A DNA stretch of 64,000 bases from Eledone cirrhosa (lineage: Eukaryota), in assembly GCA_964016885.1 (NCBI GenBank), contig OZ024745.1:128712001-128776000 (forward strand), given 5' to 3'. Below, piece after piece: positions 9,060-9,199 of this stretch. The notes under the pieces were generated by a model. The model ran no database searches. It saw only the letters and a list, made by a program, of their open reading frames with translations, and had not been told where the DNA came from. Every line of letters starts with the position of its first letter. Position 1 is the stretch's first letter. Made by a program: the position numbers and the translations under genes.

Positions 9060-9112
9060 ACTGCCTGAAGAGGTCACAGCCAAAGATGGCTGTCACCGAA
9101 ATATATAGCAGT
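9060..9112 (+). ncRNA. Minimal type I hammerhead ribozyme, in an element spanning ~8950-9190
   Basis: actgc-CTGAAGA-ggtcacagcc aaagat ggctgtcacc-GAAA-tata-TA-gcagt, followed by AATAAA. Stem I has 5 bp and stem II pairs at 9 of 10 positions. Confidence 0.9.
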
Positions 9113-9199
9113 AATAAACGAAGCTAAATTTTAAACATTTGACTTATTTATTTTATTTTATTTTACATTACTCCGGAGTAACCAAACCAAACTGCGAAC

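Follow-up and report, generated by a model that had tools for sequence, protein, structure and literature searches.

The window, the whole 64-kb stretch of DNA analysed here, contains a type I hammerhead ribozyme motif at positions 9060-9112 of the forward strand, with a 5-bp stem I, an intact core, a 10/11-bp stem II and the helix III strand AUAUAU. Positions within the motif (G10.1, A15.1, H17 and so on) follow the usual hammerhead numbering, and all parts described here lie on the forward strand. From 9060 to 9118 the linear order is ACUGC, CUGAAGA, stem II, GAA, AUAUAU, A, GCAGU and AAUAAA. The 5' strand of stem I (ACUGC, 9060-9064) forms five base pairs with its 3' strand (GCAGU, 9108-9112), and the catalytic core box CUGAAGA (CUGANGA) occupies 9065-9071; both features had been described in an earlier sequence-only reading of this DNA and were borne out. 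Stem II (9072-9097) has 10/11 bp, with a C.C mismatch at 9075/9094, an AAGA loop at 9083-9086 and a closing G10.1-C11.1 pair. The earlier reading had recognised the long stem but gave 9/10 bp, a figure that omitted the closing G-C pair. The core GAA (G12-A14, 9098-9100) leads into the helix III strand at 9101-9106 (A15.1 to U16.1), which is a perfect palindrome, as had been claimed, and a 6-nt slippage variant of the 8-nt AUAUAUAU of its family. Cleavage is predicted 3' of H17, an A at 9107, a position taken from the hammerhead consensus. The AATAAA at 9113-9118 is conserved in 60 of 65 family copies; it is present as described, but the 3' strand of stem I separates it from the UA that it was said to follow immediately. 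A role for it as a poly(A) signal was not supported: copies end approximately 50 or 140 nt beyond it, in TA/CT repeats.

The motif was located using a purpose-written descriptor rather than Rfam. The descriptor requires the core boxes, stem I, a stable stem II and a U-H site, and demands no pairing in helix III. Rfam models returned no hammerhead match at E <= 10 on positions 8950-9260, and no hammerhead family was among the best 150 of 599 matches on the whole window. The CUGANGA and GAAA boxes, the U-H site, stems I and II and the open ends in stem I are those of a type I hammerhead. The predicted fold has a z-score of -3.36 (1 of 200 shuffles was equally good) and leaves helix III open. Forcing the A15.1-U16.1 pair is calculated to cost 5.3 kcal/mol, in agreement with the earlier claim that helix III is unable to fold alone.

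A truncated Penelope-like element

The hammerhead lies within a 5'-truncated Penelope-like element (PLE) with Hydra-clade motifs, of which the 3' pseudo-LTR and the tail are left; the copy is inserted in (TA)n at 8945-9262 on the forward strand (ends from alignment). This segment is 92% identical to a full-length copy in locus L033 and 92-94% identical to 39 other full-length matches listed. As a query against the 3.0-Gb genome (1,796 contigs) it found 46 places in the best 40 of 1,405 candidates, and the family pattern has 8,256 matches genome-wide. The 3' tail (9169-9262, forward strand) is carried by full-tail copies and is absent from a short class of ends, mostly inverted arms, that stop near 9168. 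Among 65 family copies, 21 have 3' ends at 9160-9175 (14 at exactly 9168) and 41 reach at least 9240. The inverted arms stop at a near-fixed point approximately 60 nt past the cleavage site (14/65 at 9168), while the opposite arm reaches the tail (L002, L011, L017, L020, L022, L028, L031, L033 and others). The family tail, as in L002 (1730-1815), folds into two short hairpins (-22.8 kcal/mol); the corresponding window sequence, 9173-9258, is disrupted (-16.3 kcal/mol, with a different fold).

Longer copies extend upstream into a 3' UTR of more than 1 kb, followed by a GIY-YIG domain and a reverse transcriptase (RT). The element unit is approximately 4.1 kb long (4,151 bp in L033). In L197, two same-strand hammerheads at 2526 and 6623, 4,097 bp apart, flank the reading frame, and there is an additional inverted arm; this is a layout in which a dimer could form in cis. 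The family hammerhead is thus located in the PLE pseudo-LTR, downstream of the RT-endonuclease (EN) frame, and L197 carries it at either end. L198 (793/1287) and L199 (784/1284) are near-identical loci with same-strand motifs approximately 500 bp apart and a short inverted tail between them; they are possibly one duplicated insertion, and a short-range cis dimer is possible there. No same-family partner of the window copy was found elsewhere in the 64-kb window or in the 10 kb before it (19 kb upstream and 55 kb downstream in all).

The insertion sits in an 11-kb degenerate (TA)n array (6079-16931) with several nested element remnants, including the hammerheads at 9060 and 12009-12079. A tail-only remnant of the same family lies in the opposite orientation at 6010-6078 (reverse strand), at the edge of this (TA)n block. 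An open frame of 136 amino acids at 8431-8840 (reverse strand), inserted in the same (TA)n block as the window copy, has no Pfam match; we take it to resemble the C-terminal end of an RTE-type LINE.

The L033 protein contains RMRWK (RWK), HADKT (DKT) and RDD, a CxCx5C linker (CNCRNPESC) and CKLC...E...N...CRH, with CxxC and CxH around E and N. There is one cysteine between the VYG (GIY) and YIG boxes, i.e. no cysteine pair, and CCHH is absent. The RT was identified by motifs, with no Pfam RT match, and the C-terminal GIY-YIG domain scored a Pfam E-value of 0.0015 (in L032), below the curated gathering cut-off. These features match a parent element of the Hydra clade of C-terminal EN+ PLEs, a putative placement made by motifs rather than by a tree with reference elements. 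Craig et al. 2021 (PMC8557442) give RWK, DKT, CxCx5C, GIY-YIG without CCHH, CxxC/CxH and (TA)n insertion as Hydra-clade features. The element described here shares the RWK, the DKT, the linker and the CCHH-less GIY-YIG, as well as the CxxC and CxH around E and N, the (TA)n insertion and a canonical hammerhead. It differs in its unit of approximately 4.1 kb, its long linker and its 3' UTR of more than 1 kb, published members being generally shorter than 3 kb; the supplement lists a Hydra-1_Obim. Two other element types were considered and rejected: Naiad/Chlamys PLEs, which require an N-terminal endonuclease where the one here is C-terminal, and non-LTR retrozymes, which need 170-400-nt non-coding tandem units where the window holds a solo fragment of a 4.1-kb coding unit.

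The window copy had been called the best-preserved ribozyme, a description that the comparison with its family contradicts. Helix III is 8 nt long (AUAUAUAU) in 7,580 of the 8,256 family matches, 10 nt in 194 and 6 nt, as here, in only 16. The window copy departs from the column majority 18 times in 311 columns, compared with 0-10 times for the other top-matching copies (a set picked by likeness and hence biased), and three other hammerheads in the window have intact cores and satisfy the descriptor. In a 65-copy tree, 15 distinct 6-nt rows are scattered and need 11 changes; this is rough support, as the bootstrap had not settled and the alignment took in flanking DNA of truncated copies. In inverted pairs, the short helix is on one arm only in 7 of 8 cases and on both arms in L172/L173. 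The 11 changes and the one-arm-only pairs suggest that the 6-nt form arises repeatedly by slippage, and its scatter on the tree led us to reject it as a mark of an active subfamily. The window copy is a rare, scattered slippage variant that has lost one AU unit. As (AU)n is palindromic at any even length, it says nothing about selection.

The swapped active dimer of the window copy is favoured over two monomers by a calculated ddG of -2.2 kcal/mol and is not the lowest-energy form, with a helix III pair probability of approximately 0.11. With the 8-nt helix of a natural copy, the swapped dimer does become the minimum-energy structure (ddG -7.2 kcal/mol), and the helix III pair probability is approximately 0.54. 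The window copy is therefore predicted to dimerise poorly and, given its lost AU unit and lack of a nearby partner, is likely to be inactive on its own. The earlier prediction that this ribozyme cleaves as a dimer applies to the family more than to the copy for which it was made.

Helix III across the hammerheads of the genome

Applied to 100 evenly spaced 10-kb stretches of the genome, 1.0 Mb of unselected sequence in total, the descriptor found 68 motifs; it found none when the same DNA was reversed. Genome-wide, the core pattern has 110,151 matches (overlaps included), compared with 6,996 in the reversed control. The hammerhead motif is real and common in this genome. We clustered 93 motifs, namely the 68 unselected ones plus others taken from the window and the pattern loci, with helix III left out of the comparison; this yielded 23 clusters. 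One cluster, a mis-parsed truncated copy, was dropped, leaving 22 clusters, eight of which rest on a single copy, with 14 distinct majority helix III strands.

Two further palindromes named in the sequence-only reading were found where expected: AUGCGCAU of family F at 773-834 and 12009-12079 (both reverse strand), and AUAUAUAU of family C at 27512-27574 and about 20005-20093 (both forward strand). Copies of the family C type divide between AUAUGUAU (11/23) and AUAUAUAU (10/23). The window family had been presented as having an additional, different palindrome, but its usual helix III is the same as that of family C and is thus not a third palindrome. A family with 16,063 matches has AGAACU (80), AGGACU (19) or AGAGCU (1) among the first 100 matches listed, none a perfect palindrome by hand count. 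A dimer of these strands would have two pairs on each side of tandem purine mismatches (examples on the forward strand at L044:865, L056:9214 and L072:2220); no helix III duplex is predicted for AGAACU. One copy of this family lies downstream of a Hydra-like EN. Related RT/EN remnants, at 35-56% identity, also precede three of the other helix III types, which marks these clusters as divergent relatives rather than independent draws.

Since hairpins are self-complementary by definition, we counted only helix III pairs that are impossible in a monomer (loop of fewer than 3 nt). There are 25 such dimer-only pairs in the 22 clusters, of which 20 are Watson-Crick, two are G.U and three are mismatched, whereas pooled shuffles give 6.4 expected Watson-Crick pairs (0 of 200,000 reached 20); the relatedness of the families means that these shuffle counts overstate independence. 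Both sides have changed at each of the three inner pairs of the 8-nt helices when AUAUAUAU, AUGCGCAU, AUGAUCAU, ACCAUGGU and ACAUGUGU are compared. Flank-relatedness z-scores between clusters were set aside because they are inflated by TA-rich flanks. Perfect palindromes are present in 33 of the 68 unselected copies, or 49 of 68 if G.U is allowed.

The proposal that palindromy itself is under selection therefore survives in a relaxed form, and in that form is essentially published already. Self-complementarity is kept across divergent families (20/25 against 6.4), but strict palindromy is not required, as the 33/68 copies and the 16,063-match family demonstrate. On balance, most lineages retain a self-complementarity compatible with dimer pairing and tolerate wobble pairs as well as purine mismatches at the centre of the helix. 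A stronger version, in which helix III and the swapped stem I constitute a family-specific pairing code (AUAUAUAU, AUGCGCAU, ACCAUGGU, ACUAGU, AGAACU and others) and each RNA is cut only with its own kind, is unlikely to be correct; one abundant family would have to follow it despite two central purine mismatches in a six-base helix.

Proposed dimer cleavage and competing accounts

Palindromic helix III and dimer cleavage in Penelope hammerheads, both put forward in the sequence-only reading, had already been published. Cervera and de la Pena 2014 (PMC4209133) described hammerheads in PLE repeats and found that palindromic 15.2-16.2 pairs and loop 3 emerged unasked; for one PLE motif, monomer cleavage was absent and dimer and trimer cleavage were low in vitro, and a circular-RNA model for the PLE template was proposed. 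The link between palindrome and dimer is also stated in two reviews (PMC6765202, PMC6466107), both citing Lunse, Weinberg and Breaker 2017. A preprint (bioRxiv 10.64898/2026.07.22.740005) reports that 8 of 9 Xenopus retrozyme dimers failed to cleave. Our literature search turned up no tally of dimer-only covariation in this genome, although Lunse 2017 or the supplement of Cervera 2014 may hold an equivalent.

The window motif has the features of the palindromic class of Cervera 2014 (palindromic 15.2-16.2 and loop 3, G10.1-C11.1, short stem I and long stem II). The family resembles those type I PLE motifs in the same respects, and also in occurring mostly as solo truncated copies, in opposite-strand pairs a few hundred bases apart, and in a tandem pair that flanks an ORF and is predicted to act as a dimer. 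It differs in its 10/11-bp stem II (7-8 bp in PMC4209133) and in having no unpaired base between 9 and 10.1. Unlike the loop-less min-HHR of that paper, the helix III of the family carries an insert of 6 nt, or of 4 nt in the window copy. The window motif is not a min-HHR in the strict sense, with loop 3 present and G9072 pairing directly with C9097. As described in PMC6466107 and PMC7229834, the double hammerheads of ASBVd(+), the newt satellite and the axolotl retrozyme likewise have a helix III too short to stand alone that is completed by pairing of two motifs, and HHR_Amex1 has one pair and a palindromic tetraloop, like the 6-nt window copy. Those double hammerheads sit in short tandem repeats, have partners at distances of a few hundred bases, and are shown to be transcribed and to cleave, whereas the window copy is a solo remnant of an autonomous element.

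Our preferred reading, to which we assign a probability of about 0.75, is that a truncated PLE carries this type I hammerhead in its terminal repeat, that the two motifs of the full-length element, approximately 4.1 kb apart, are predicted to pair via helix III and are likely cut as a double hammerhead, and that the lone copy with its lost AU unit is likely inactive. The motif, its pseudo-LTR position, the tandem locus, the 8-nt helix and the self-complementarity across families were observed; the pairing and cutting steps are drawn from that layout and the published literature. Two hammerheads would be brought together on a read-through or tandem transcript, their stems I would swap partners, and the two helix III strands would form one 8-bp helix between the two cores. 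Cleavage after H17 would then release a unit-length RNA. Since hardly any genomic copy has its end or its start at the cut site, the RNA that is reverse transcribed is likely uncut or re-ligated (circular). Selection on source elements would keep a dimer-pairing helix III, allowing G.U and central purine mismatches, and dispersed copies such as the one in the window would drift.

A by-product of the TA bias of genome and element, rather than selection for dimer pairing, could yield palindromes in the window family: its helix III is pure (AU)n, with 6-, 8- and 10-nt versions palindromic by construction, and the element inserts in (TA)n. Once (AT)n-like helices are removed, however, 15 of 19 dimer-only pairs are still Watson-Crick, compared with 4.9 expected from pooled shuffles (1 of 200,000 as extreme) or 5.6 from within-helix shuffles (4 of 100,000), and the two-sided changes extend to all three inner pairs of the 8-nt helices. 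TA bias is therefore highly improbable as a general explanation and is largely refuted for the class, while being the right account of the 6-nt state of the window copy. Cutting as monomers, helped by protein or loop contacts so that the central pairs matter little, would explain how the AGAACU/AGGACU family reached 16,063 matches with no perfect palindrome among the first 100 listed. It would also suit two 9-nt strands that fit a monomer hairpin (3 bp and a 3-nt loop) and have a mismatched dimer-only pair, and the fact that a full intermolecular helix III appears in the lowest-energy co-fold of 6 of 23 cluster representatives, which is weak as a general test of dimers. Pairs 3-6 and 4-5 of the 8-nt strand are nevertheless impossible in a monomer and yet covary, and a single S. 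mansoni motif did not cleave while its dimers and trimers did (PMC4209133), so we regard monomer cutting as quite unlikely.

Alternatively, the fold could be kept for a purpose other than cutting a template for transposition, for instance as a binding site for the element's own protein or for rare processing only, and cleavage in vivo would be marginal. Junctions into (TA)n are in line with this: 6 copies end at the cut site and 11 start there, against 8,256 intact matches and 68 copies that start at the window copy's own TA junction, counts that cover junctions into long TA runs. Start positions and missing cut-site ends in the 65-copy set were shaped by the choice of segment and are not evidence. 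Naiads, moreover, proliferate without canonical hammerheads (PMC8557442). Against this, the catalytic core and U-H site are kept in 22 clusters (partly circular, since the descriptor requires them), and a re-ligated circular template, as in the model of PMC4209133, would also leave the sites intact; we consider a role of this kind very unlikely. The same junction counts led us to reject two insertion schemes, namely priming of (TA)n insertion by the AU-rich cleaved 3' end (6 such ends) and copies that have their start at the cut site (11 cases, compared with 68 for a single control TA junction).

The single window locus matters little, since it is drifting and has thousands of relatives. Taken together, the hammerheads of this genome form a natural series for asking what these ribozymes do in Penelope elements, with 22 sampled clusters that carry 14 distinct helix III strands, changes on both sides of dimer-only pairs, one abundant family that departs from perfect palindromy and almost no insertions that end at the cut site. 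This series offers ready constructs for a test of dimer dependence and favours an uncut or re-ligated template.

Two further observations concern the rest of the window. Long near-perfect inverted repeats occur at 5499-5616, 17131-17295, 33002-33179 and 56433-56673, the last with C-family hammerheads on both arms. At approximately 9630-9800 on the reverse strand there is probably another Penelope-type tail, whose end near 9685-9705 resembles by eye the 3' end of an AGGACU-family copy in L056 (approximately 9395-9418).
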